The translations under genes were made by a program, and so were the position numbers. Shown piece by piece: positions 2,883-53,577 of a stretch of 64,000 nt of DNA. The stretch comes from an uncultured Chloroflexia bacterium (GTDB taxonomy: Bacteria; Chloroflexota; Limnocylindria; Limnocylindrales; CSP1-4), in assembly GCA_963748625.1 (NCBI GenBank), contig CAVVJT010000010.1, forward strand, positions 416,001 to 480,000. The letters run 5' to 3'. Position 1 is the first letter of the stretch, and each line of letters begins with the position of its first letter. Under the pieces are notes generated by a model that saw only the letters and a program-made list of their open reading frames with translations, was not told where the DNA came from and made no database searches.

Positions 2883-2991
2883 CCCCACGTGGGGGCCAGA
2901 TCCGCACCTCGCACGCACGCACCGGGTCGCAAACCCGGGGTTTCGCGCGCAGAGCACGCTCAGCTGGGCCCGAACCGCCCCCCACGTGGGC
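2883..2991. repeat. Family B palindrome-bounded dispersed element (~109 bp), copy 1
   Basis: Ends CCCCACGTGGGG / CCCCACGTGGGC; its reverse complement aligns almost without gaps to 48946..49053 (shared TGAGCGTG, GAAACCCNGG, GGCCCCCANGTGGGGCG). Confidence 0.75.
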
Positions 2992-3096
2992 CGCCGCGCG
3001 GGGTTGGAGCCGGGGAACGTAGGCCGCCGGTGGACGAACCGGGCCGGCGGGGGCTGCAGATGGGCGACCCGGCCCGCGACACGTTCAGGGGACCCG

Positions 3097-25102: not shown

Positions 25103-25225
25103 CGTGATGTCCTCGTCGGGTGGTGCGCGCTCAGCGCTCAGCGGGCCAGCAGGCCGCGGGCCAGGTCGACCGCGGCACCGGCATCGGGGGCGTAGCCGTC
25201 GGCGCCGATCTGGGCAGTATGCTGA

Positions 25226-25295
25226 CTGGAACGATTTAGTCTGCACAGTAGGACTGGCCACGACGGGTGTCAAGCCCCCTTCTCAAACGATTTGG
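25226..25295. promoter_or_regulatory. LacI-type operator-like sites in the divergent promoter
   Basis: CTGGAACGATTTAG (~25226) and TCAAACGATTTGG (~25283); similar to 27674-27687. Confidence 0.45.
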
Positions 25296-25357
25296 TCCCT
25301 GCGTCCTCCGATGGTCGATCGCGCGGGCTAGACTCCGGGAAACGAAGCGAGGGACCG

Positions 25358-26377
25358 ATGGCGGACGAGTCGGCGAACGCGCCGAAACGGGCGACGATCA
25401 AGGACGTGGCGCGCGCCGCAGGCGTGTCGACCGCCCTGGTGTCGATCGTGCTCAACGGTGCTCCCGGCGCAAGCGACGCGACCCGGGCACGCGTGAAGGG
25501 CATCGCCGAGGAGATCGGCTATCGGCCTGACGCCCATGCCGCCCTGCTCCGGCGCCGGCGCGCGCGCCTGCTCGGCGTGAGCTTCTCGGTGCAGTCGGCG
25601 TTCCACGGGGACCTGCTGCCAGGGATCTACACCGCCGCCGAGGCCGCGGGCTACGAGGTCACGCTCAGCGGCTGGACCGAGGCCCGCAGCGAGGAGCGCG
25701 CCATCCAGGCCCTGCTCACGTTCCGCTGCGATGCGCTGCTCCTGCTGGGCACCGAGGTGGACGAGGCGCGGATCGCAGTACTCGCGCGCTCGCTGCCGGT
25801 GGTGGTCATCGGGCGACGCCTGGCGGAGCCGGTCGCTGACACGGTCCGCACCGATGACATGTCGGGCCTGCGGCTCGCGGTCGAGCATCTCGCCGCGCTG
25901 GGCCACCGGCGCATCGCGCACGTGGACGGCGGGGCGACCGTGAAGTCAGAGGACCGCATCGCGGGCTACCGGGCCGCCATGGAGGCGCTGCGCCTGGGCG
26001 GGTACATCGAGATCATCCCGGGCGGCGAGACGGTCGAGGCGGGCATCGAGGCGGGCCGCCGGCTGCTGGCCGACCCAGGTGAGCGGACGGCCGTCGTCGC
26101 CTTCGACGATGACTGTGCATGGGGCGTCATGAGCCTGCTGCAGGCCCAGGGCGTCGGGCTCCCGGGCGCCCTGTCGATCGTCGGCTTCGATGGCAGCCGC
26201 CTCTCACGCCTCACCCCGCTGTCGGGCATGACCACGGTCCGCCAGGACGCAGAGATGCTGGCGTCGCTCGCGGTACAGCGCGCGGTCGCATGGATCGAGC
26301 ACGGGCGTCTGCCTGACCCGGACGTGGTCCTCGCGCCCAGCCTGATCGAGGGCCGCAGCACGGCTCCGCTGCCATGA
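25358..26377 (+). CDS. LacI family transcriptional regulator
   Basis: TIKDVARAAGVSTALVS HTH, GHRRIA, SIVGFD, TTVRQD. Confidence 0.95.
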   Translation: MADESANAPKRATIKDVARAAGVSTALVSIVLNGAPGASDATRARVKGIAEEIGYRPDAHAALLRRRRARLLGVSFSVQSAFHGDLLPGIYTAAEAAGYEVTLSGWTEARSEERAIQALLTFRCDALLLLGTEVDEARIAVLARSLPVVVIGRRLAEPVADTVRTDDMSGLRLAVEHLAALGHRRIAHVDGGATVKSEDRIAGYRAAMEALRLGGYIEIIPGGETVEAGIEAGRRLLADPGERTAVVAFDDDCAWGVMSLLQAQGVGLPGALSIVGFDGSRLSRLTPLSGMTTVRQDAEMLASLAVQRAVAWIEHGRLPDPDVVLAPSLIEGRSTAPLP

Positions 26378-26625
26378 CCCCGACCACCGACACGGGGTTC
26401 GCCGGCCTCACCACCTGAAGCCTGCGCATCGAGCGGATCAAGACCATCGCCCTTCGCGCGGCGTTGGTCGCGTGTTGAACCCGCTGGGAGTCATGAGCGG
26501 GCTGTCCGCGCACGGGACGTGCAGCAAACTCGACCTGGCTGCACGCCCGCCGCACGGAGCGGGCCCGGGCGACTCCCCCTTGAGTCACGAGGACTCACGA
26601 GCGCTGACGCGCCGCCCGGGCACAA

Positions 26626-26659
26626 CAACGCCCCCGGTCCGCGGAGACCAGAGGCGTTG
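26626..26659 (-). terminator. Hairpin downstream of the IolE-like gene
   Basis: CAACGCC-CCCGGTC...GACCAGA-GGCGTTG. Confidence 0.45.
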
Positions 26660-26704
26660 CCGGCGCAAGCGCCGGAGGAGGATCCGGCAGGTGATCGCGG
26701 GGAG

Positions 26705-27627
26705 CTACCGGGTGACCTTCATGCCACAGGTCTTGAAGTAGTCGTAGGTGCGCTTCGCGATCGGGAAGGGCTTGTCCCAGTCACACGGGTACAGGTCCTG
26801 CTCAACGATGCAGTAGAGGTCGCGGTCGAGGCCGGCGAGAGCCGCGAGAAGCGAGGGCATGTCCGGGTCGCCCAGGGGCGGCTCGACCATGACGCCAAGG
26901 CGGACGGCCGGCGGGAAGCCCAGCTTCTCCTCGGCCACGCGGGCGCTGATCGCGCGGTCCACCTGCTTGAGGTGGACGTACTGCACGCGGTCGGGGTAGT
27001 CCGCGATGAGCTTGAGGTTGTCGGCGCCGCAGTACGCGACGTGGCCCGTGTCGAGGCAGAGCTGGACGGTCTCGGGATCGGTCCCGTCGAGGAAGCGCTC
27101 GATCTCCTCCTGGGTGCCCACGTGGCTGTCGGCGTGGGTGTGGAAGACGAGCACCGCACCGTGCTTGTCGGCGACGTACTTGCCGAGCTCGCTCATGCCG
27201 GTGTTGAGGTTGGTCCACTCGCTCGTCCGTCAGGGTGAGGCTCATCGGTGAGGTTGCCGTCGTTGTCCGTGTAGCCCTCGGGCAGGATCACGAGGTGCTT
27301 CGCGCCGTTGGGGCCCAGGATCGCCATCTCGGCGTCGCAGTCGGTCTTGGCCTTCTCGAGCGCCTCCCTGCCGTGCTGGAGGCCCATCGCAACCGTGCCG
27401 CCCGTGAGGGTCAGGCCGCGCTTGGCGTATGCCTCGCGGATGATGCCCGGGTCAGCCGGGAGGTAGCCGAAGGGGCCGAGCTCGCTGTACTGGTAGCCGG
27501 CTGCCTGGACCTCGTCGAGGTAGCGCTCCCACGGCGTCTGGAGCGGGTCGCCACTGGGGTTCCACACACCCCAGGAGTCAGGGGCGGTCCCCAGCTTGAG
27601 CTTGGGATAGGTCGGCAGTTCGGTCAC
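26705..27627 (-). CDS. IolE-like (myo-inosose-2 dehydratase / AP-endonuclease-2 barrel) protein; frameshift(s) ~27230
   Basis: APDSWGVW, ELGPFGYLP (27193..27939), then FHTHADS, LDTGH, HLKQ, VEQD (26705..27196); AAGGAG RBS before GTG. Confidence 0.8.
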
Positions 27628-27672
27628 CGTGGAGCTCCTTGCACCGTGCTCGCGGACGCTTGTGGCGCCCAT

Positions 27673-27687
27673 ACTAATACGTTCTAG
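27673..27687. promoter_or_regulatory. LacI-type operator upstream of the IolE-like gene
   Basis: ACTAATACGTTCTAG, a palindrome around the central CG. Confidence 0.55.
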
Positions 27688-27717
27688 TTGGAACGCAAGG
27701 GCGTCTGCCCGGGGTCC

Positions 27718-27826
27718 CCCCAAACATGTGGTGTCCAGAGGTTGTCCGTGCAGGCCTCGACCGACGGAATGACGATCCGGGGGTTGAGCCACGAGGGCAG
27801 CGGGCTGATTCGCCCCATGCTTGGGG
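27718..27826 (+). repeat. Family A 109-bp element, copy 1 (solo)
   Basis: CCCCAAACATGTGG...TGAGCCACGAGGGC (offset 67)...CCCCATGCTTGGGG. Confidence 0.8.
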
Positions 27827-27955
27827 CGCCGCCGGGTGGGCACGGCCGGGCGGGCGGGACCAGGCGAGTGGGCGGCGGCTCGGGCGGGCGCACCGCATGG
27901 GGCAGGCGCACCGCATGAGGCGGGCGGCCCTGGTGGCACCCCCGACGGGAATGAG

Positions 27956-27989
27956 GAACCGGGGTCCCAGCAGCTTGGAACCCCGGTTC
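27956..27989 (-). terminator. Hairpin downstream of the ABC permease
   Basis: GAACCGGGGTCCCA-gcagct-TGGAACCCCGGTTC. Confidence 0.45.
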
Positions 27990-28030
27990 GAGCAGGTCAG
28001 CGATAGGAGCCGGGAGCCGCCTCCTGACGG

Positions 28031-31868: not shown

Positions 31869-32180
31869 GCCGGGCGCCGTCAACCCCATTTCGACACCAA
31901 TGCGCTTCTTGACGACAACTGGCTCGATTCGGGGATGGTGAGGTCGCCCACCGTGGGTGCCACCCCAGCATGCCAGAACGGGCGGGAACCGTCGCGCGGC
32001 CGGCCTCAGCGGGCGCGGCATCACTTGCCGGTCGGCGAGGGGCCGGCCCCGAGCGGCGTCGCACGCCCGGTGCGAATGCCGATCGAGCAGTCGATGGGGG
32101 TGCGTGGCGGCCGCGCGGGCCACCAGGTCGTACGACATGGTGCCGAACGGACCTGCGGGGGTTGCGTCGGCCCATTACCA

Positions 32181-32193
32181 TGTAATCGGTTAC
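32181..32193. promoter_or_regulatory. LacI-type operator upstream of iolG
   Basis: TGTAATCGGTTAC. Confidence 0.7.
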
Positions 32194-32237
32194 TCCGCTG
32201 GAACCGTGCAGCGCGTCGTCCGACGCAGGAGAAGCAG

Positions 32238-33230
32238 ATGGTCCGTATCGCAATGCTCGGCGCCGGCCGCGTCGGTCAGGTCCACGCCCGATCCATCTAC
32301 GACACGACGGGCGCCGAGCTCGCCCTGGTCGTCGACCCGATCGAGGCCGCCGCCACGGCGCTCGCCGGGACCTACGGTGTCCCCTCCAGCCTCGACGTCC
32401 AGGACGCGTTCGAGGATGCCTCGATCGACGCGGTCGTCGTGGGCACGCCCACCAACACGCACACCGAGATGCTCGAGCGCGCGGTCGCCGCCGGCAAGAA
32501 GGTGCTGCTCGAGAAGCCGATCGACCTCGACATGGGCAAGATCGACGCCACCTGGGCGCGGATCGCGGACAAGGCGCCGTTCGTCATGCTCGGCTTCAAC
32601 CGCCGCTTCGACCCGTCCTTCCGTGAGGTCGCGATGCGCCACAAGGCCGGCGAGATCGGCCCGGTCCGCGCGCTGCGCATCACCTCGCGCGACCCGCAGC
32701 CCCCGCCCGCCGCGTACCTGTCGATCTCCGGCGGCATGTTCAAGGACATGACCATCCACGACTTCGACATGGCCCGCTTCCAGCTGGGCGACTTCGTCGA
32801 GGTCCAGGCGATGACCTCCACGAATGGCCTCGAGGCGTTCGAGCAGGCCAACGACCACGCGCAGGCGATGATCGTCATGCGCGCCGCGTCCGGCGCCCTG
32901 TGCACGATCGTGAACTCGCGGTCCTGCGCGTACGGCTACGACCAGCGCCTGGAGGCGTTCGGTGACCTCGGGTCGCTCGAGGCCGGCAACTGGACGGCGA
33001 CCACCGTCCGCGCCGCGTCCGCGAGCCGGACCGAGGCCGCGGGCCCCATCCTCAACTTCTTCCTCGAGCGCTACATGCCGGCGTTCAAGAACGAGATGGC
33101 CGAGTTCGTGGCCGCGATCACCGAGGATCGCGAGCCGGCGGTCGGCTTCGCCGACGGGCGCGCCGCCCTGGTCCTCGCCGAGGCCGCCGCCGAGTCCGTC
33201 GCCAAGGGCGCCGCGGTCAAGATCGGCTGA
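32238..33230 (+). CDS. iolG: Inositol 2-dehydrogenase
   Basis: GAGRVG, EKP, GFNRRFDP, ITSRDP, DMTIHDFD, YGYDQRLE, FFLERY; AGGAG RBS. Confidence 0.88.
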   Translation: MVRIAMLGAGRVGQVHARSIYDTTGAELALVVDPIEAAATALAGTYGVPSSLDVQDAFEDASIDAVVVGTPTNTHTEMLERAVAAGKKVLLEKPIDLDMGKIDATWARIADKAPFVMLGFNRRFDPSFREVAMRHKAGEIGPVRALRITSRDPQPPPAAYLSISGGMFKDMTIHDFDMARFQLGDFVEVQAMTSTNGLEAFEQANDHAQAMIVMRAASGALCTIVNSRSCAYGYDQRLEAFGDLGSLEAGNWTATTVRAASASRTEAAGPILNFFLERYMPAFKNEMAEFVAAITEDREPAVGFADGRAALVLAEAAAESVAKGAAVKIG

Positions 33231-33336
33231 TCGCCCGCTCGTTCTCGCCCGCTAACACAGAAGTCCGCCCGGCAGACCACCGGGCGGGCTCCATCGTTCC
33301 TGCAGGCGGCGTGAGACGTCGGTCCTCGCCGCGAAG

Positions 33337-33445
33337 CCCCAACCATGGGGCGTCCTGGAATCTTCCCCGAGGAGATCGACCTCACGACTGTCGCTTCGAG
33401 GGCTGAGGCACGAGGGCGAGGGGCAAGTTCACCCCATGGTTGGGG
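33337..33445 (+). repeat. Family A 109-bp element, copy 2 (downstream of the HTH-nuclease gene)
   Basis: Perfect 14-bp terminal inverted repeat CCCCAACCATGGGG / CCCCATGGTTGGGG; TGAGGCACGAGGGC at offset 67. Confidence 0.8.
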
Positions 33446-33550
33446 GAAGTGCGGGCGGTGCGAGGCCCGGGGGAAGTGCGGGCGGTGCGAGGCCCGGGCC
33501 AGTGCGGGCGGTGCGAGGCCCGGGCCGGGGGGCGGTGCGAGGCCCGGGGC
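33442..33550. repeat. Degenerate tandem repeat (4x GGGCGGTGCGAGGCCCGGG core) abutting element A2
   Basis: Units of ~24-27 bp seen directly. Confidence 0.8.
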
Positions 33551-33610
33551 CGGGGCGGGGCCCCGGGGGGACCCGGGGGCGGTGCGGTCGTCAGGGGCAG
33601 CCTGGCGCGT

Positions 33611-34423
33611 TCAGAGGGATCGCAGCAGCCTGGCTGCGGCGTCTGCGTATCCCTCGTAGGCGGGCCTGCGCCGGACACTCCCGAGGATCGGTTGACGAAG
33701 CCAGTTGGCGCCGCGCGAGCCCGGGTCGACCATGGCGAGGGTCCATCCGCGCGGTCTCGGCGCCCGGGAATCCCGGATCCACGCGTCGAGGTCGCGGACG
33801 TCACCCGGAAAGGCGTTCCGAACCGTGTCCCGGTTGTCCGCGAGGCGCCGGGCGAGCACTGCGGTGTCGAGCGCCAGCACAACCACGGTCACGGATCGCA
33901 CGTCCCATCCGTTCGCCCGAGCGACGGCCCATGCCTCCCGTGCGTAGAACGCCAGGCTCCTCTGCAGGTCGCCCATGTCCGGGATGTCGGTCTTCGTCTC
34001 GTCCACCAGCAGCGCCTTGTCCGCCGCGCGATACCCGAGGAGGTCGATCCATCCGCGGGGCCGATCCTCCCCGATCGGGACCTCGAGGTCCGTCTCCCAG
34101 CCAGATGCGGTCAGCCGACGTGCTCCGTAGCCGTTGACCACCGCGTGCACGCCGTCCCGCTGGCGGACCCTGTCGTCGAGATGCCGGTCCTGCACAGACA
34201 GGCTTCCTCGGAGGCCAAGCGCGGCGAACACGCGCTCGACCACCGCGAGGTCGATGTGGTCGGCCTTTCCGTGCTCCAGGCGCCAGATCGTCCCGTTCGA
34301 CGTGGCCGCGCGGCGGGCCAGCTCATCCTGGCTGATGCCGACCAGCAGCCGGCCGCGCCTGAGCAGCGCTGCCAGCCATGGGCCGAGCGTGGCCGTCGTG
34401 AGGTCGACCGAGGTGTCCTGCAT
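33611..34423 (-). CDS. XRE-type HTH fused to a PD-(D/E)xK nuclease-like domain (270 aa)
   Basis: R...GISQDELARRAATSNGTIWRLEHG HTH; GWETDLEVP...GWIDLL...LLVDETK nuclease motifs; C-terminal part of ORF 33611..35737; probably leaderless. Confidence 0.75.
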   Translation of the reverse strand: MQDTSVDLTTATLGPWLAALLRRGRLLVGISQDELARRAATSNGTIWRLEHGKADHIDLAVVERVFAALGLRGSLSVQDRHLDDRVRQRDGVHAVVNGYGARRLTASGWETDLEVPIGEDRPRGWIDLLGYRAADKALLVDETKTDIPDMGDLQRSLAFYAREAWAVARANGWDVRSVTVVVLALDTAVLARRLADNRDTVRNAFPGDVRDLDAWIRDSRAPRPRGWTLAMVDPGSRGANWLRQPILGSVRRRPAYEGYADAAARLLRSL

Positions 34424-34491
34424 GGAGCAGGTGTAGCAGCGTCCGCTTATGCGCGGCTCAACCCGTCTCCCGGGCACGAGCCGCCGGGGTG

Positions 34492-34600
34492 CCCCAGCAT
34501 TGGGGCGTTCCGGCCATCTCCGCTCAGGGCTCACCTGCCCAAAGGTCGATCCGGGGGTTGAGCCACGAGGGCGGCTGGCGAATCCGCCCCATGATTGGGG
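34492..34600 (+). repeat. Family A 109-bp element, copy 3 (upstream of the HTH-nuclease gene)
   Basis: CCCCAGCATTGGGG...GATCCGGGGGTTGAGCCACGAGGGC (identical to copy 1)...CCCCATGATTGGGG. Confidence 0.85.
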
Positions 34601-34656
34601 CGGCGAGCTGTGCGTTGGCGGTGCGTTGGCGGTGTTGGAAGCGCGGGCCTGGAGGC

Positions 34657-35778
34657 TCAGCCCCCGTCGGCGACGATCTCCTTGATCTCCACGCGGCGCC
34701 CCTCGCGGGCGCTGCGATCGGCCGCCTCGAGCACCCGCTGGACAGCCAGGCCGTCCGCGAAGTCCGGCGAGGCGGGCCGGCCCTCTGCGACCGCGGTCAC
34801 GAAGGCGCGCTGCATGGTTTCCTGGGTGCGGAAGACGTCGCGGTACGTGTTGTGGACCGTGTCCCGCCGGGCACCTGCCCAGATGTGGTCCGGGATCGGC
34901 AGCTCGCGCGGGTCCGTCTCGTCGGCCCGGCAGCCCTCGACCCGCTGGATCGTTCGCCAGTCGCACATCGCCCGTAGCGTTCCCCCGGACCCGTGGAGGT
35001 CCAACTCGTGGCGCTGCCCGAACGGCCCGGGCTCGTGCGCCAGCGACGTCAGGTGCAGCGACCCCGTCGCCCCGTTCTCGAACTCGAGCAGCAGGATCGC
35101 CGCGTCGTCGGCCGCCTCGAACGGCGCACCGTCGGGGCGCGGGTCGCGCGGGACCAGGTGGCTGTAGACGGCGCTCACCGCCCGGATCTCGCCGAAGTAC
35201 CAGCGGGCCATGTAGACCCAGTGCGACCCGAGGTCGCCCAGGATCCCCGAGCCCGCCTCCCCCACGTCGAAACGCCACGCGTAGGCACCCGACCGCCCGA
35301 ACCCGGTGTAGTAGCGCAGGTTGAGGTGGTACGGCTGGCCGATCCAGCCCTCGTCCATCAGCTCCTTCATGTAGTGGTTGGCCGGCATGAACCGGTACGT
35401 GAAGGGCGCCATCGTCGTCACGCCGGCCTTCTCGGCGGCCTCGGTCATCTCCCGGGCCTCGCGCGCGGTCAGGCCCAGCGGCTTCTCGCACAGGACGGCG
35501 AGACCGCGCTCGAGGGCGGCCATCGTCGTCGCGTGGTGGGTCTTGTTGGGCGTGAGCACGAGCAGCGCGTCGAGTTCCTCCGCGTCGAGCATCTCCTCGA
35601 GCGAGTCGTACGCACGCGGGATGTTCCAGGTGCGGGCGAACTCCCGCGTGTGCTCGCCACGTGACCCACCCACGACACAGCGGATGTCGGCGAGCGGGTG
35701 GCCGGCGATGGCCGGCAGGTACATCGCGTCGGCCCACCAGCTCGTGCCGGCGATCCCGATCCTGACCTTGTCCATCAT
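34657..35778 (-). CDS. Gfo/Idh/MocA oxidoreductase
   Basis: CEKPL, FTYRFMP, DLGSH, PDFADG. Confidence 0.9.
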   Translation of the reverse strand: MMDKVRIGIAGTSWWADAMYLPAIAGHPLADIRCVVGGSRGEHTREFARTWNIPRAYDSLEEMLDAEELDALLVLTPNKTHHATTMAALERGLAVLCEKPLGLTAREAREMTEAAEKAGVTTMAPFTYRFMPANHYMKELMDEGWIGQPYHLNLRYYTGFGRSGAYAWRFDVGEAGSGILGDLGSHWVYMARWYFGEIRAVSAVYSHLVPRDPRPDGAPFEAADDAAILLLEFENGATGSLHLTSLAHEPGPFGQRHELDLHGSGGTLRAMCDWRTIQRVEGCRADETDPRELPIPDHIWAGARRDTVHNTYRDVFRTQETMQRAFVTAVAEGRPASPDFADGLAVQRVLEAADRSAREGRRVEIKEIVADGG

Positions 35779-45354: not shown

Positions 45355-45397
45355 CGGGGCTCCCTGGGTGGTCACGGGCGGTGGGTCCGCCCGTTGA

Positions 45398-45411
45398 TGT
45401 AAGCGCTTACA
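45398..45411. promoter_or_regulatory. Perfect LacI-type palindromic operator
   Basis: TGTAAGCGCTTACA between the divergent IolE-like operon and LacI gene. Confidence 0.85.
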
Positions 45412-45446
45412 ATCAGTTCCCGAACTGTAGTAGGCTGCGCGTCGGA

Positions 45447-46568
45447 ATGCAACCCGAATCGCGCATCGAGCACCCCGGCGACACGACCCGGCCGGACGCC
45501 GCCGATGGCCGCCGCCGTACCCGTGGCGCACGGTCGAGCGGCCAGATGACAATCGAGGAGGTCGCCGCCCTCGCCGGGGTGTCAATCGCCACGGTGTCGA
45601 GGGTCCTCACCAACCGCGTGGCGGTGCGGCCCGAGACCCGGCGCCGGGTCCTCGATGCCGTCGAGCAGCTGGGCTACGTCCCTTCGGGTCCGGCTCGGGC
45701 ACTCGCGGGCGGGCGCACCGGCATGCTGGGCCTGCTCATGACCGACCTCACCCAGCCCTTCTACACGGAGCTGGCGAACGCGATCGAGTCCGAGGCGCAG
45801 GCGCGCGGCTTCACGCTGATCCTGGCCAACGGTGCAGGTGACAGTGGCCGGGAGGCCGGGTACCTGGACCTGCTCGCCCAGCGGCGCGTGGACGGAATCC
45901 TGGTCGCCTCGCGCGGGGTCACCACCCGCCACATCGACTGGCTCCGGCACGCGCCGGTCGAGGTGGTGCTGGTCACCTGCGAGGCGCCGGGCGTGCCCCT
46001 GCCGGCGATCGTCGCGGCATCGCGTTCCGGGGCGGCGCTCGCGGCCGACCACGTCCTGGCGCTGGGCCACCGGCGGATCGCCGAGATCGCAGGCCCCGAG
46101 GTGAGTGCCTCGGCGCCGGAGCGCCACGCGGGGATCGTGGATGCCCTCGAGCGGGCAGGTGTCGCGGCGGCGGAGCTAGCGGTCGTCTCCTGCGACGGCG
46201 ACGTGGCCGGCGGGCGTGCTGCGGCGGAGGCCCTGCTGGGGCTCTCGCCGAGGCCCACGGCCATCCTCTGTTACAACGACCTGGTTGCTGTGGGCGCGCT
46301 GCACGCGATTGCCGCGGCGGGGCTGTCGGTGCCGCGCGACATCAGCGTGGTCGGCTTCGACGACATTCCCGTCGCCTCGATGGTGAGTCCGGCGCTCACG
46401 ACGGTGGCGCAGGCCGTCGGCGAGATGGCCCGCTGGTCCGTGGAGCGGATCGCGGCGCAGATCGCAGCGAACCACGGCGCTGGCGCAGTCGAGCCCCAGG
46501 GCGCGGTCCACATGCCCTGCCGGCTTGTTGTCCGCGACTCCACCGGGGCTCCGCCTCCTTCGACCTGA
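45447..46568 (+). CDS. LacI family transcriptional regulator (alternative start 45546)
   Basis: TIEEVAALAGVSIATVSR, GHRRIA, YNDLVAVG, SVVGFDD, LVVRDST. Confidence 0.93.
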   Translation: MQPESRIEHPGDTTRPDAADGRRRTRGARSSGQMTIEEVAALAGVSIATVSRVLTNRVAVRPETRRRVLDAVEQLGYVPSGPARALAGGRTGMLGLLMTDLTQPFYTELANAIESEAQARGFTLILANGAGDSGREAGYLDLLAQRRVDGILVASRGVTTRHIDWLRHAPVEVVLVTCEAPGVPLPAIVAASRSGAALAADHVLALGHRRIAEIAGPEVSASAPERHAGIVDALERAGVAAAELAVVSCDGDVAGGRAAAEALLGLSPRPTAILCYNDLVAVGALHAIAAAGLSVPRDISVVGFDDIPVASMVSPALTTVAQAVGEMARWSVERIAAQIAANHGAGAVEPQGAVHMPCRLVVRDSTGAPPPST

Positions 46569-46613
46569 GCGGCGTTCCGGGGTCCGCGTCTGCGTCCCGG
46601 GGTCCGCCCGATC

Positions 46614-46722
46614 CCCCAGATATGGGGCACTTTCCGTGTGTTCGCTCAGAGCCCACCCTCGAATCTGTCGTCTTGGCGGGTGAGCCACGAGGGCTGCCTG
46701 CCGAAACGCCCCACGGTTGGGG
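46614..46722 (+). repeat. Family A 109-bp element, copy 4 (solo)
   Basis: CCCCAGATATGGGG...TGAGCCACGAGGGC (offset 67)...CCCCACGGTTGGGG. Confidence 0.8.
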
Positions 46723-46810
46723 CGGGCCGCGCACAGCCACGAACCGGGCGGGCATGAACAGACCCGCCCGGCGCGAACGCCAGGCGGGCTCAGGAACGGC
46801 GAGAAAGGAA

Positions 46811-48835: not shown

Positions 48836-48953
48836 TGCCACCCCACCTTCCCTGCATGGCGCCCCACCTTCACCCCGTGCCACCCCACCTTCCCTGCATG
48901 GCGCCCCACCTTCACCCCGTGCCACCCCACCTTCCCTGCATGGCGCCCCACCT
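48836..48953. repeat. 42-bp tandem repeat (~2.8 copies) running into element B2
   Basis: TGCCACCCCACCTTCCCTGCATGGCGCCCCACCTTCACCCCG repeated exactly. Confidence 0.9.
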
Positions 48954-49053
48954 GGGGCCGAATCCAGACCTGTTGAGCGTGGTCTGTGTGAGAAACCCGG
49001 GGTTGCGTGCGCGGCGCGTGCGGGAGGCGGTGCGAAACGGCCCCCAGGTGGGG
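48946..49053. repeat. Family B palindrome-bounded element (108 bp), copy 2, inverted relative to copy 1
   Basis: CCCCACCTGGGG ... CCCCAGGTGGGG (perfect 12-bp inverted repeat); aligns to the reverse complement of 2883..2991. Confidence 0.75.
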
Positions 49054-53322: not shown

Positions 53323-53577
53323 GCCGCGATCCTATCCCTTGGGCTGATCAGTCCCCTTCCCGGGGCGTCCCAAGCCCCGGAATCGGGCGCGCTTGGTCGG
53401 ACTGGGGCACCGGGTGCCCCGAAAGGACGTGGAACCGGGCCGCGCGGCGCCGGAATGGGGCTTCACATGCCTCGAACCGACGCCCAAGGATCGAAACCGG
53501 GGCTTCGGATGCCCCGGGCCGACCCCTCCCGCCGGGCCGACCCCTCCCGCCCCGCCGGTCCCACCGGTCTGGGCACG

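Follow-up and report, generated by a model that had tools for sequence, protein, structure and literature searches.

The window (the whole 64-kb stretch of DNA analysed here) contains a gene for a 270-aa protein, P0001, which combines an XRE-type HTH with a PD-(D/E)xK fold and lies between two 109-bp hairpin repeats. The gene and its two flanking repeats likely form one unit of ~1.3 kb, with P0001 as the repeat family's cognate enzyme; we put the probability of this reading at roughly 0.58. By analogy, the unit likely works as a RAYT gene does with its REPINs (a "REPtron"), or an IS with its MITEs, on a different enzyme fold. The link between these hairpin repeats and a gene is new, and among the papers listed in our literature searches none linked a PD-(D/E)xK protein to REP/REPIN-type repeats. 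The preliminary description of this DNA had proposed the HTH-nuclease as a RAYT/REPIN analogue with another fold; the flanks, empty sites and fold on which that proposal relies hold computationally, whereas binding, cutting and mobilization of the repeats are predictions.

Four family A elements occur in the window (Table 1). Their coordinates, 109-bp length, shared orientation and CCCCA-N4-TGGGG ends were all re-found as described; each element scores best on the + strand, and copy 1 has a degenerate left end. Over 14 bp, the two ends of copy 2 are perfect reverse complements. The common motif reported for the copies, TGAG(C/G)CACGAGGGC, begins at offset 67 in 4/4 elements and has four exact matches in the window. 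Copies 2 and 3 flank the 270-aa gene, also as described. Four sister-family elements had been overlooked by the preliminary description, which brings the window to eight repeats. The 19 ORFs scanned in the interval 23.8–48.7 kb contain no transposase or integrase domain, in agreement with the earlier claim. No Rfam family reaches its gathering score anywhere in the window, with chance-level matches only (E ≥ 1) around the gene, and a promoter scan of 33200–34750 identified 0 sigma-70-like sites.

Table 1. Repeats, tandem arrays and the 270-aa gene in the window (positions within the 64-kb stretch), followed by other members of the gene family in the same genome, G000 (contig:positions).
Feature	Position	Strand	Remarks
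Family B element	2884..2992	-	Terminal CCCCAC..GTGGGG palindromes
Family D element	26477..26587	-	Terminal TGACTC-N6-GAGTC-type palindromes
Family A solo copy 1	27718..27826	+	109 bp; left end degenerate (CCCCAAACATGTGG)
Family A hairpin element, copy 2	33337..33445	+	109 bp; 166 bp downstream of stop codon of 270-aa gene
G-rich tandem repeat	33442..33569	.	26-27-bp unit, about 4 copies; adjoins 3' end of copy 2 (TRF)
Gene for 270-aa protein P0001	33611..34423	-	From translation; flanked by family A pair
Family A hairpin element, copy 3	34492..34600	+	109 bp; 69 bp upstream of start codon of 270-aa gene
Short tandem repeat	34610..34634	.	11-bp unit; directly beyond copy 3
Family A solo copy 4	46614..46722	+	109 bp
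Family B element	48945..49052	+	Tandem array 48836-48953 adjoins its 5' end
Family H element	53404..53516	.	GGGGC-N7-GCCCC palindromes 95 bp apart
Gene-family member	C7:636146-636932		Family B pair; gene frameshifted
Gene-family member	C10:1357585-1358391		Family D pair
Gene-family member	C7:661405-662172		TGAGTC-N6-GACTCA pair
Distant gene-family member	C7:665256-666029		TGCGC-N7-GCGCA family pair
Sixth gene-family member	C10:414654-415262		65-bp pair, 97% identity

Using iterative nhmmer, we identified 32 family A copies in the 4.63-Mb genome, a metagenome-type assembly with an estimated contamination of 7.7%. The match spans 109 bp in 19 of these and 108 bp in another five. The genome has 53 CCCCA-N4-TGGGG sites where its composition predicts ~25, and 11 site pairs are spaced exactly 94–95 bp; this pattern exceeds chance. 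At least six sister families follow the same plan, an imperfect palindrome of ~110 bp with two identical terminal palindromes 93–95 bp apart. Family B has 50 matches corresponding to 49 elements, as one copy is split by an IS30-type element, and family D has 28 full-length matches. Recurrent palindrome pairs revealed further families (TGCGC-N7-GCGCA at 19 loci, GGGGC-N7-GCCCC at 7); because this genome is GC-rich, the 5+5 palindrome-pair scan gives much noise (190 of its 231 loci belong to none of families A, B and D, and many resemble chance GC palindromes), and only recurrent half-sites were used. The elements are spread over seven contigs, between housekeeping genes.

Both large families fold more stably than shuffled sequences: the mean MFE is −56.0 for family A (shuffles, −43.9 ± 5.1) and −59.9 for family B (shuffles, −49.8 ± 5.2). 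At the symmetric register, 64–68% of positions pair, versus 38–50% with a shifted register. RNAalifold analysis of 24 A and 22 B copies recovered the terminal pairs and a few inner pairs only, with a covariation term of almost nil, which argues neither for nor against an RNA function, and the one compensatory end change between copy 2 and its ortholog in the related genome G061 is too little to separate hairpin pairing from protein sites. Within families, mean column identity is 72–77%, and no copies are identical except for one duplicated stretch; the copies are therefore old, which gives no support for recent activity.

A tandem array stands at an end of 52/110 elements genome-wide, versus 7.5 ± 2.7 at random intergenic places, and some of these arrays consist of repeats of the element's own terminal motif. 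One example is the array at 48836–48953, whose units repeat the terminal motif of the adjoining family B element. Given such arrays, the element ends look like sites of action.

P0001 consists of an XRE-type HTH (residues 16–74), a PD-(D/E)xK fold (~80–235) and a conserved C-terminal tail. An XRE HTH and apparently intact E...D...ExK nuclease motifs had been read from the translation, and both stand: Pfam HTH_31 matches with 29 bits (cut-off, 27) as the only significant Pfam family, and across 26 homologs D127, E142 and K144 do not vary, with at least 90% conservation of E114. The HTH fold resembles those of ClgR, C.AhdI and HipB (Z 10–11). AF2 produced a model with a pLDDT of 90.5 and an alpha-beta-beta-beta-alpha-beta core (H80–106, E110–117, E124–132, E137–144, H150–170, E177–185). 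In this model D...(D/E)xK falls on strands 2 and 3 of the core, as in the PD-(D/E)xK superfamily. Foldseek matched the C-terminal domain to the R2 endonuclease domain, NucS, PspGI, BstEII and PfoI; VIA matched it to Upx (Z 8.5), AF1548 (Z 8.3), NucS (Z 7.9) and Can2 (Z 7.8). All matches from both programs are nucleases, with moderate scores, and the C-terminal domain is confidently modelled as a PD-(D/E)xK fold, as the preliminary description had supposed. In PADLOC and PHROGs, only the HTH of P0001 has matches and the C-terminal domain has no family, and a PDB sequence search likewise returned the HTH only. The protein family comprises 448 clusters at 50% identity (E ≤ 1e-30).

The XRE HTH of P0001 is predicted to bind the 14–18-bp terminal palindromes, probably as a dimer given the palindromic form of the sites, and its nuclease domain is predicted to cut at the element. 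Cutting there would mobilize or maintain both the whole unit and the solo copies. Since no strand-transfer chemistry is known to us for the PD-(D/E)xK fold, new copies would need host repair or recombination after cleavage; we know of no PD-(D/E)xK enzyme that performs transposition alone. The gene may also be autoregulated via the palindromes 60–150 bp upstream of its start codon.

Homologs of the gene carry flanking repeats too, as would be anticipated from the preliminary description. In 33 homolog loci from across the genus, we compared upstream with downstream flanks against a background of 1056 mismatched flank pairs; 13 loci exceeded the 99th percentile, where ~0.3 were expected, and 18 exceeded the 95th. 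Bracketed loci are often orthologs, so linkage by descent inflates the count, and the 13 positives represent about nine independent groups. The homologs' flank pairs belong to other, lineage-specific repeat families built on the same plan. In 10/24 loci, a repeat pair flanks exactly the gene with a start-to-start spacing of 1062–1155 bp, and this pair is usually the sole dispersed repeat within 16.8 kb. No flank pair was detectable in 15–20 of the 33 homolog loci. Gene family and repeats had at first seemed to have no link, as family A is absent from 11 relatives' loci and occurs in only 3/61 and 4/70 genomes; searching the relatives' flanks for repeats of any sequence overturned this view.

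Within this genome, five members of the gene family each lie in a different repeat family (Table 1). Gene copies within a genome are 47–58% identical and thus are not recent copies of one another. Three distant members have no detectable flank pair. The largest family, B, is paired with the frameshifted gene, and families F and H have no assigned gene. In other genomes, the motif beside a homolog predicts the repeat family: the motif flanking the G067 homolog identified, in G067 itself, 26 elements of 111 bp with perfect ends, 0 in 66 of 69 other genomes and 1–2 in two others, and the motif beside the G058 homolog identified five elements in G058, three in G080 and 0 in 68 others. Reversed-pattern controls for both motifs gave 0 in every genome. 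The repeat families are genome-specific and predictable from a gene's flank. Comparison of the protein tree, whose backbone is poorly resolved, with terminal-motif class revealed no clean co-phylogeny, and the three loci with GATCCAC-type ends need three changes on the tree.

Comparison with relatives shows both inheritance and turnover. The gene and copies 2 and 3 have orthologs at the same place in G061. Solo copy 1 has an orthologous copy in G058, and none was found at the rearranged G061 site; solo copy 4 is absent in G061 together with the LacI-type gene at 45381–46568, where a 38-bp gap remains. The family B element at 48945–49052 is also absent at the orthologous G061 site, such that solo copies differ between sister genomes. 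Among 70 genomes of the genus, family A occurs in four and is abundant only in this genome and G061, both of which have the orthologous gene. Family B comprises 49 elements in this genome, where the B-flanked gene is present, and one locus in G061, where that gene was not found.

Empty sites had likewise been anticipated. At the family D unit they are clean: two convergent neighbour genes are 1330 bp apart in this genome, with the unit between them, and 0–49 bp apart in nine relatives (six compared base by base, three by coordinates). This repeat-gene-repeat unit is a clean 1.3-kb insertion relative to the nine relatives. At the window's own locus, relatives lacking the unit are also without the adjacent Gfo/Idh/MocA gene, so the indel there is not unit-precise. 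No target-site duplication could be read, since alignment of the intergenic flanks between genomes fails. In public sequencing archives, no RNA run is listed for this genome and the best DNA runs share ≤0.14 of sampled words; contigs from four DNA runs were short pieces with no informative joint across the unit.

None of these nine relatives has any element between the flanking genes at the family D site; the unit therefore came with its repeats, or in two steps. This observation argues against an unlikely alternative in which the gene is a selfish element that targets repeats: the repeats would have spread otherwise or be relics, and the HTH-nuclease would recognise them as landing sites only (homing-endonuclease- or REP-IS-like), each gene copy ending inside the resident family that it recognises. 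Target recognition would also be expected to produce a match between gene and family, and some families lack an intact gene or have no gene assigned to them; these repeats also receive other mobile DNA, as in the family B copy split by the IS30-type element, and IS insertion into REP sequences is documented (PMC1525189, PMC12288879). However, the gene lies between two complete elements and not within one, and the spacing of flanking pairs is constant (1062–1155 bp).

The HTH most resembles repressor-type XRE domains, HipB and C-protein among them, and palindromes occur 60–150 bp upstream of the start codon. Both features suit an autoregulated stand-alone nuclease (e.g. defence- or addiction-type), with the palindromes as its operators and their likeness to dispersed repeats secondary, the repeats decaying from, or being seeded by, operator-bearing DNA. 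We consider this explanation very unlikely, as it accounts neither for the complete 109-bp hairpins that flank the gene on either side nor for the fixed 93–95-bp spacing of two identical palindromes, nor for the 26–50 solo copies per genome between unrelated genes; the lack of a PADLOC or PHROG family for the C-terminal domain also speaks against it. Chance co-location, by which repeats and small accessory genes would gather in poorly constrained intergenic gaps, is close to refuted: the repeats do cluster (11 in C7:601–660 kb, eight in the 64-kb window) and also flank small genes of other kinds (e.g. a VapBC pair), but the excess of matched flanks, the presence of the same family on both sides of each gene with different families for different genes, and the motif predictions in G067 and G058 all stand against it. 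Nor is flanking a matter of mere abundance, a concern raised in the preliminary description: among 120 element matches, only six same-family neighbour pairs are <1.3 kb apart, and 2/6 bracket homologs of the 270-aa gene.

The reading of gene and repeats as one unit invites comparison with known systems, foremost REPIN/REP repeats with a RAYT gene, which are described in Pseudomonas, enterobacteria and Stenotrophomonas (PMC3733652, PMC3116915, PMC3337134, PMC5581495). According to one of these papers, REP units carry a GTAG or CGTC terminal tag, and CGTC-type REPs seem to have no transposase of their own (PMC3733652). As in REPIN-RAYT systems, hairpin repeats that are also dispersed as tens of solo intergenic copies flank a gene with one copy per type; every type is paired with a distinct repeat population, with several populations in one genome; and the gene is vertically inherited, based on the ortholog at the same place in G061. 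Unlike in those systems, the enzyme is not an HUH/Y1 transposase but an XRE HTH with a PD-(D/E)xK fold, and the repeats have no GTAG/CGTC tag but end in CCCCA-N4-TGGGG and other palindromes; they are ~110 bp long, with identical terminal palindromes 93–95 bp apart and tandem arrays at their ends. Pfam Y1_Tnp (PF01797), the RAYT domain, has no match in the whole genome, although control genomes do respond, and a search of the genome for the TnpB zinc-ribbon domain (PF07282) was likewise negative.

Many bacterial genomes hold palindromic intergenic repeat families without a known enzyme, and HUH-type RAYTs are so far the sole established partner class. In the present case, an enzyme fold unrelated to theirs has the same genomic signature: bracketing by its own repeats, genome-specific populations, coexisting pairs and variable presence of the unit. 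Should action of the protein on the repeats be confirmed, REPIN-like systems would have arisen more than once, an unnamed family of 448 clusters would gain a function, and the long-standing question of repeat copying without a classical transposase would be open to direct tests, as the sequence reveals both protein and target. A broader reading, to which we give slightly less than even odds, is that of a new prokaryotic class of mobile or "resident" repeats, in which a lone XRE-HTH/PD-(D/E)xK nuclease spreads 110-bp hairpin repeats and palindromes and HTH co-diversify into orthogonal specificities within one genus. If so, orphan palindromic repeats of high-GC bacteria would gain their missing enzyme, and the family would supply a natural set of site-specific nucleases whose targets can be read.

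A second comparison is with insertion sequences and the MITEs derived from them, and with long palindromic repeats (e.g. ERIC or Correia elements). As with an IS and its MITEs, a repeat-bounded unit of ~1.3 kb lies between genes and is absent from relatives, and short non-coding derivatives occur in intergenic DNA; in contrast, the ends of this unit are complete 109-bp palindromes, not simple 15–40-bp inverted repeats, and the unit encodes no DDE, HUH, serine or tyrosine recombinase. Integron attC sites and gene cassettes were considered and rejected. The attC core-site consensus is RYYYAAC ... GTTRRRY, and attC arrays adjoin an integron integrase; the ends of the present elements, judged by eye, misfit the R''/R' consensus, and the elements are dispersed over seven contigs, not gathered in one array.

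A restriction-enzyme-like fold serves mobile DNA in TnsA of Tn7, which acts only together with the DDE transposase TnsB, and in Rpn/YhgA-like PD-(D/E)xK "transposase-like" nucleases. P0001 shares this fold; unlike TnsA, it carries an HTH itself and is the unit's only gene product, and a Pfam search gave no sequence or family match to TnsA or TnsB in P0001. The closest solved folds, the R2 endonuclease domain, NucS/EndoMS, AF1548 and Can2, have the PD-(D/E)xK core in common with P0001 (Foldseek E 5.5e-4 to 1.3e-2; VIA Z 7.8–8.5 over 104–117 residues, with Z near 8 only moderately above background for the VIA fold search). They differ from P0001 in domain partners and biology, with 12–17% sequence identity.

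The preliminary description reported four elements in the window, each 109 bp long with CCCCA-N4-TGGGG ends, two of which, copies 2 and 3, bracket the gene for P0001, a 270-aa protein combining an XRE HTH with a PD-(D/E)xK domain; re-reading of the window sequence and translation of the gene bore this out, and the core TGAG(C/G)CACGAGGGC occurs at offset 67 in all four (family A, copies 1 to 4). The gene lies, as described, among genes of sugar/inositol-type metabolism (LacI-type regulators, ABC transport, Gfo/Idh/MocA oxidoreductases, TIM-barrel isomerases, TPP enzymes, and transketolase), and the claim that no transposase or integrase is nearby held in a domain scan of 19 ORFs, none of which contained either domain. 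Y1_Tnp (RAYT) and TnpB domains had no match in the source genome (G000). Besides the four family A copies, the window contains two family B elements, one of family D, and one of family H, eight in total; Rfam gave no match to the elements in the window. A scan flagged a GC-rich stem-loop between the Gfo/Idh/MocA gene and copy 2 as terminator-like.

Locations of the features discussed in the text
Feature	Location	Strand	Remark
Family A copy 1	window 27718-27826
Family A copy 2	window 33337-33445
Family A copy 3	window 34492-34600
Family A copy 4	window 46614-46722
P0001 gene	window 33611-34423	-
GC-rich stem-loop	window 33262-33287	-
Tandem array	window 48836-48953		units repeat terminal motif of adjoining family B element
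LacI-type gene beside copy 4	window 45381-46568		38-bp gap in G061 (window 45368-46810)
LacI-type gene, swapped	window 25224-26372		window 25224-28016 vs G061:C17:400681-402970
TIM-barrel gene fragment, swapped	window 26705-27641
Identical family A copies	G000:C4:280165-280272 and G000:C10:272583-272690
Eleven family B matches	G000:C7:601458-659986 (60 kb)	-
Family B pair around VapB/VapC	G000:C7:658998-659986		genes at 659121-659758
Halved family B element	G000:C7:657696-657752 + 658998-659055
Tandem units beside homolog	G005:C23 (L005:671-1397)		homolog at 1501-2304

The G000 assembly comprises 4.63 Mb in 10 contigs (71% GC; completeness, 98.3%; contamination, 7.7%), and the window corresponds to G000:C10:416001-480000. 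Going by the source names of homologs, the genome falls within Chloroflexota, close to 'Candidatus Limnocylindrales'. The proposed scan of the genome for further copies, performed with iterative nhmmer, identified 32 family A members, spanning 109 bp in 19 of the 32 matches and 108 bp in 5. Family B (ends CCCCAC..GTGGGG), found via orphan palindromes, had 50 matches in G000, 33 of them exactly 109 bp long and two of them the halves of a single interrupted copy; family D (TGACTC-N6-GAGTC-type ends), found via the flanks of a P0001 paralog, had 28 full-length matches of 99-112 bp, and ~10 extra partial matches in that search belong to yet another family. A noisy scan of G000 for paired identical 5+5 palindromes 88-102 bp apart recovered a TGCGC-N7-GCGCA family at 19 loci (spacing, 93) and a GGGGC-N7-GCCCC family at 7 loci (spacing, 95). 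All families follow one plan, in which elements of ~110 bp have an imperfectly palindromic interior between two occurrences of a single palindrome, one at either end and 93-95 bp from start to start; the GAAA(C/G)(C/T)CG(G/A)GGTT-type centre is related across B, D, and several relatives. Folds of the elements are more stable than those of shuffled sequence, and 64-68% of positions pair at the symmetric register vs 38-50% when the register is shifted. Tandem arrays (period ≥7), such as the one at window 48836-48953, adjoin an end in 52 of 110 elements, compared with 7.5 ± 2.7 for randomly drawn intergenic positions (maximum, 16; 200 draws).

Copies within families have a mean column identity of 72-77% and are old, and this level of identity speaks for populations that were probably slow and long-lasting, and against a recent burst. 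Two family A copies are identical, and a second identical palindrome pair is common to G000:C2:223682 and C10:264584; identical copies on different contigs suggest duplicated or redundant stretches between contigs in this assembly, for which the contamination estimate is 7.7%.

A profile search of all ORFs identified nine members of the wider P0001 family in G000. Five of the nine, of which four are close paralogs and one is distant, lie inside repeat families that differ from gene to gene. Among these five gene-bracketing families, A and D are rich in solo copies (32 and 28 copies, respectively), B has 49 elements and flanks a frameshifted gene, the TGCGC family around the distant member has at least 19 copies in G000, and the TGAGTC-N6-GACTCA type consists of just the two gene-flanking copies. 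A 65-bp pair with 97% identity surrounds a sixth member; three distant members have no bracketing repeats. Same-family neighbours ≤1.3 kb apart formed six pairs among 120 element matches in G000. Two of the six bracket paralogs, and a family B pair encloses a VapB/VapC (PIN) toxin-antitoxin pair; thus, the repeats bracket other small accessory genes too. Two further pairs enclose ~0.8-kb stretches with no similarity to the P0001 family, and the remaining one is a family B pair at C10:581162 and 581387, 225 bp apart. Eleven family B matches, each scored on the minus strand, are concentrated in a stretch of typical chromosomal genes (SelB, FdhD, cytochrome c maturation), and two HTH-nuclease paralogs lie in or beside this stretch.

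Of 24 genus genomes sampled, 22 contain homologs of P0001. Family A was not found at 11 relatives' homolog loci, and the scarcity of this family in the genus gave a first impression that gene and repeats are unlinked, which was overturned by searching the loci for repeats of any sequence: on either side of the homologs stand hairpin elements and tandem arrays whose sequences differ from family A. A repeat pair (49-169 bp; start-to-start, 1062-1155 bp) brackets exactly the gene in 10 of 24 loci of 16.8 kb each. As a control, upstream and downstream 420-bp flanks were compared within and between 33 loci (1056 mismatched pairs). Matched flanks scored above the 99th percentile of mismatched flanks (49.5 bits) at 13 of 33 loci, representing ~9 independent groups because of orthology among loci, and above the 95th at 18; the top mismatched scores came from pairs of orthologous loci. 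That homologs of the gene are also flanked by such elements, as the preliminary description required, is thereby upheld for part of the loci. Terminal motifs vary by group (CCCCA-N4-TGGGG, CCCCAC..GTGGGG, TGACTC-N6-GAGTCA, TGAGTC-N6-GACTCA, GATCC(AC)..GGATC, AAGTCAC..GCGACTG, TGATCGC.., CATTC-N6-GAATG, and TGACCC-N6-GGGTCA), and the spacing is 92-95 bp in all homolog-flanking elements with both ends perfect. Directly upstream of one homolog, in G005, a 242-bp unit occurs three times in tandem with a D-like element in each.

Motifs taken from single loci proved specific to few genomes. A pattern of two GACCC-N6-GGGTC palindromes separated by 74-82 bp, derived from one element next to the G067 homolog, matched 26 elements in G067, 1 in G008, 2 in G013 (one of them a short tandem array), and 0 in the other 66 genomes, and the reversed pattern had zero matches. 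The CATTC-N6-GAATG pattern, from the G058 homolog, matched 5 elements in G058, including the gene-adjoining one, 3 in G080, and 0 in the other 68. Covariance-model searches scored ~55 candidates per genome, so element counts in relatives are lower bounds: family A occurs in at least 4 of 70 genomes (G000; G061, at least ~18 loci; G067, at least 3; G058, at least 1-2), family B in G000 vs at least 1 locus in the close relative G061, and family D with its relatives in at least 19 of 70, with matches flanking homologs in G084, G077, and G005. Orthologs in G061 are limited to the A-flanked gene and the D-flanked gene, the latter frameshifted.

The predicted nuclease fold of the P0001 C-terminal domain was supported by an AlphaFold2 model (pLDDT, 90.5; pTM, 0.69) with an alpha-beta-beta-beta-alpha-beta core, in which strand 2 carries D127 and strand 3 carries E142-x-K144. 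Foldseek matched this domain to the endonuclease domain of R2 retrotransposon proteins (E 5.5e-4) and to NucS/EndoMS, PspGI, BstEII, and PfoI; a structure search independent of Foldseek returned Upx (Z 8.5), AF1548 (Z 8.3), NucS (Z 7.9), and Can2 (Z 7.8), with matches covering approximately residues 92-253. The scores are moderate, yet all C-terminal matches to the predicted structure are PD-(D/E)xK nucleases. By sequence, Pfam detected only the XRE HTH (HTH_31, residues 16-74), and NCBIfam, a PDB sequence search, PADLOC, and PHROGs likewise matched the HTH alone. H93, D127, E142, and K144 are invariant in 26 homologs, of which ≥90% retain E114 and Q154. The family is sizeable and unnamed, with 448 clusters (50% identity) at E ≤ 1e-30 and 1899 at E ≤ 1e-10, the latter count taking in HTH-only matches.

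Based on the invariant D..ExK residues, P0001 would be active as a nuclease; a dimeric HTH would read the 14-18-bp palindromic ends, and the arrays at element ends may stem from a processed end at which repair or slippage occurred again and again. The recognition helix TS(N/Q/D)xx(I/V)xR differs among loci, and the protein tree gave no resolved co-phylogeny with terminal motif class.

Alternatively, the protein may use the repeats merely as landing sites, but empty sites without any element argue against this. A family D unit (element, gene, tandem array, element) lies in the 1330-bp interval between the stops of two convergent genes in G000; the interval between these genes measures 0-49 bp in G056, G077, G022, G001, G018, and G050 (compared base by base) and, by coordinates, 18-33 bp in G017, G078, and G058 and 415 bp in G066. 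In G061, this unit is present with a frameshifted gene. Empty sites, which the preliminary description proposed to look for at the window's own junction, thus exist for the family D unit. At the window's own locus, G004 and G058 connect window 31893 to 34655 via spacers of 126 and 179 bp, so that the unit and the adjacent Gfo/Idh/MocA gene are both missing there.

A system in which the nuclease and its flanking repeats belong together resembles RAYT with REPINs, or IS with MITEs, in that the gene has its own repeats on both sides, repeat populations are specific to genome and gene type, and gain concerns the unit in its entirety. The REPIN-RAYT enzyme is an HUH protein and its repeats carry a GTAG tag, whereas this system has neither HUH nor GTAG and instead a protein that joins an HTH to a nuclease of the restriction-enzyme type. 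By definition it thus lies outside REPIN-RAYT, yet it resembles REPIN-RAYT in every genomic respect tested. According to PMC3733652, CGTC-type REPs apparently have no dedicated transposase. Among the papers that the literature searches listed, no link of a PD-(D/E)xK protein to REP/REPIN-type repeats was seen. The gene-repeat hypothesis is now specific and testable.

The P0001 ortholog in G061 occupies the orthologous place with both flanking elements (77% nucleotide and 80% protein identity). The window's D copy, family A copies 1 and 4, and the B copy at 48945 were not found at orthologous G061 sites, and copy 1 has an ortholog in G058; comparison of these sequences indicates that solo copies turn over. 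Copy 4 and the LacI-type gene beside it are absent from G061 together, as a single block. Elsewhere in the window, the order of another LacI-type gene and a TIM-barrel gene fragment is swapped in G061; both junctions hold elements in G000 (family D and family A), and G061 has none there. One family B element is halved by a 1245-bp insert with a 392-aa IS30-type transposase (HTH_38 + rve), and thus other mobile DNA enters the middle of these hairpins.
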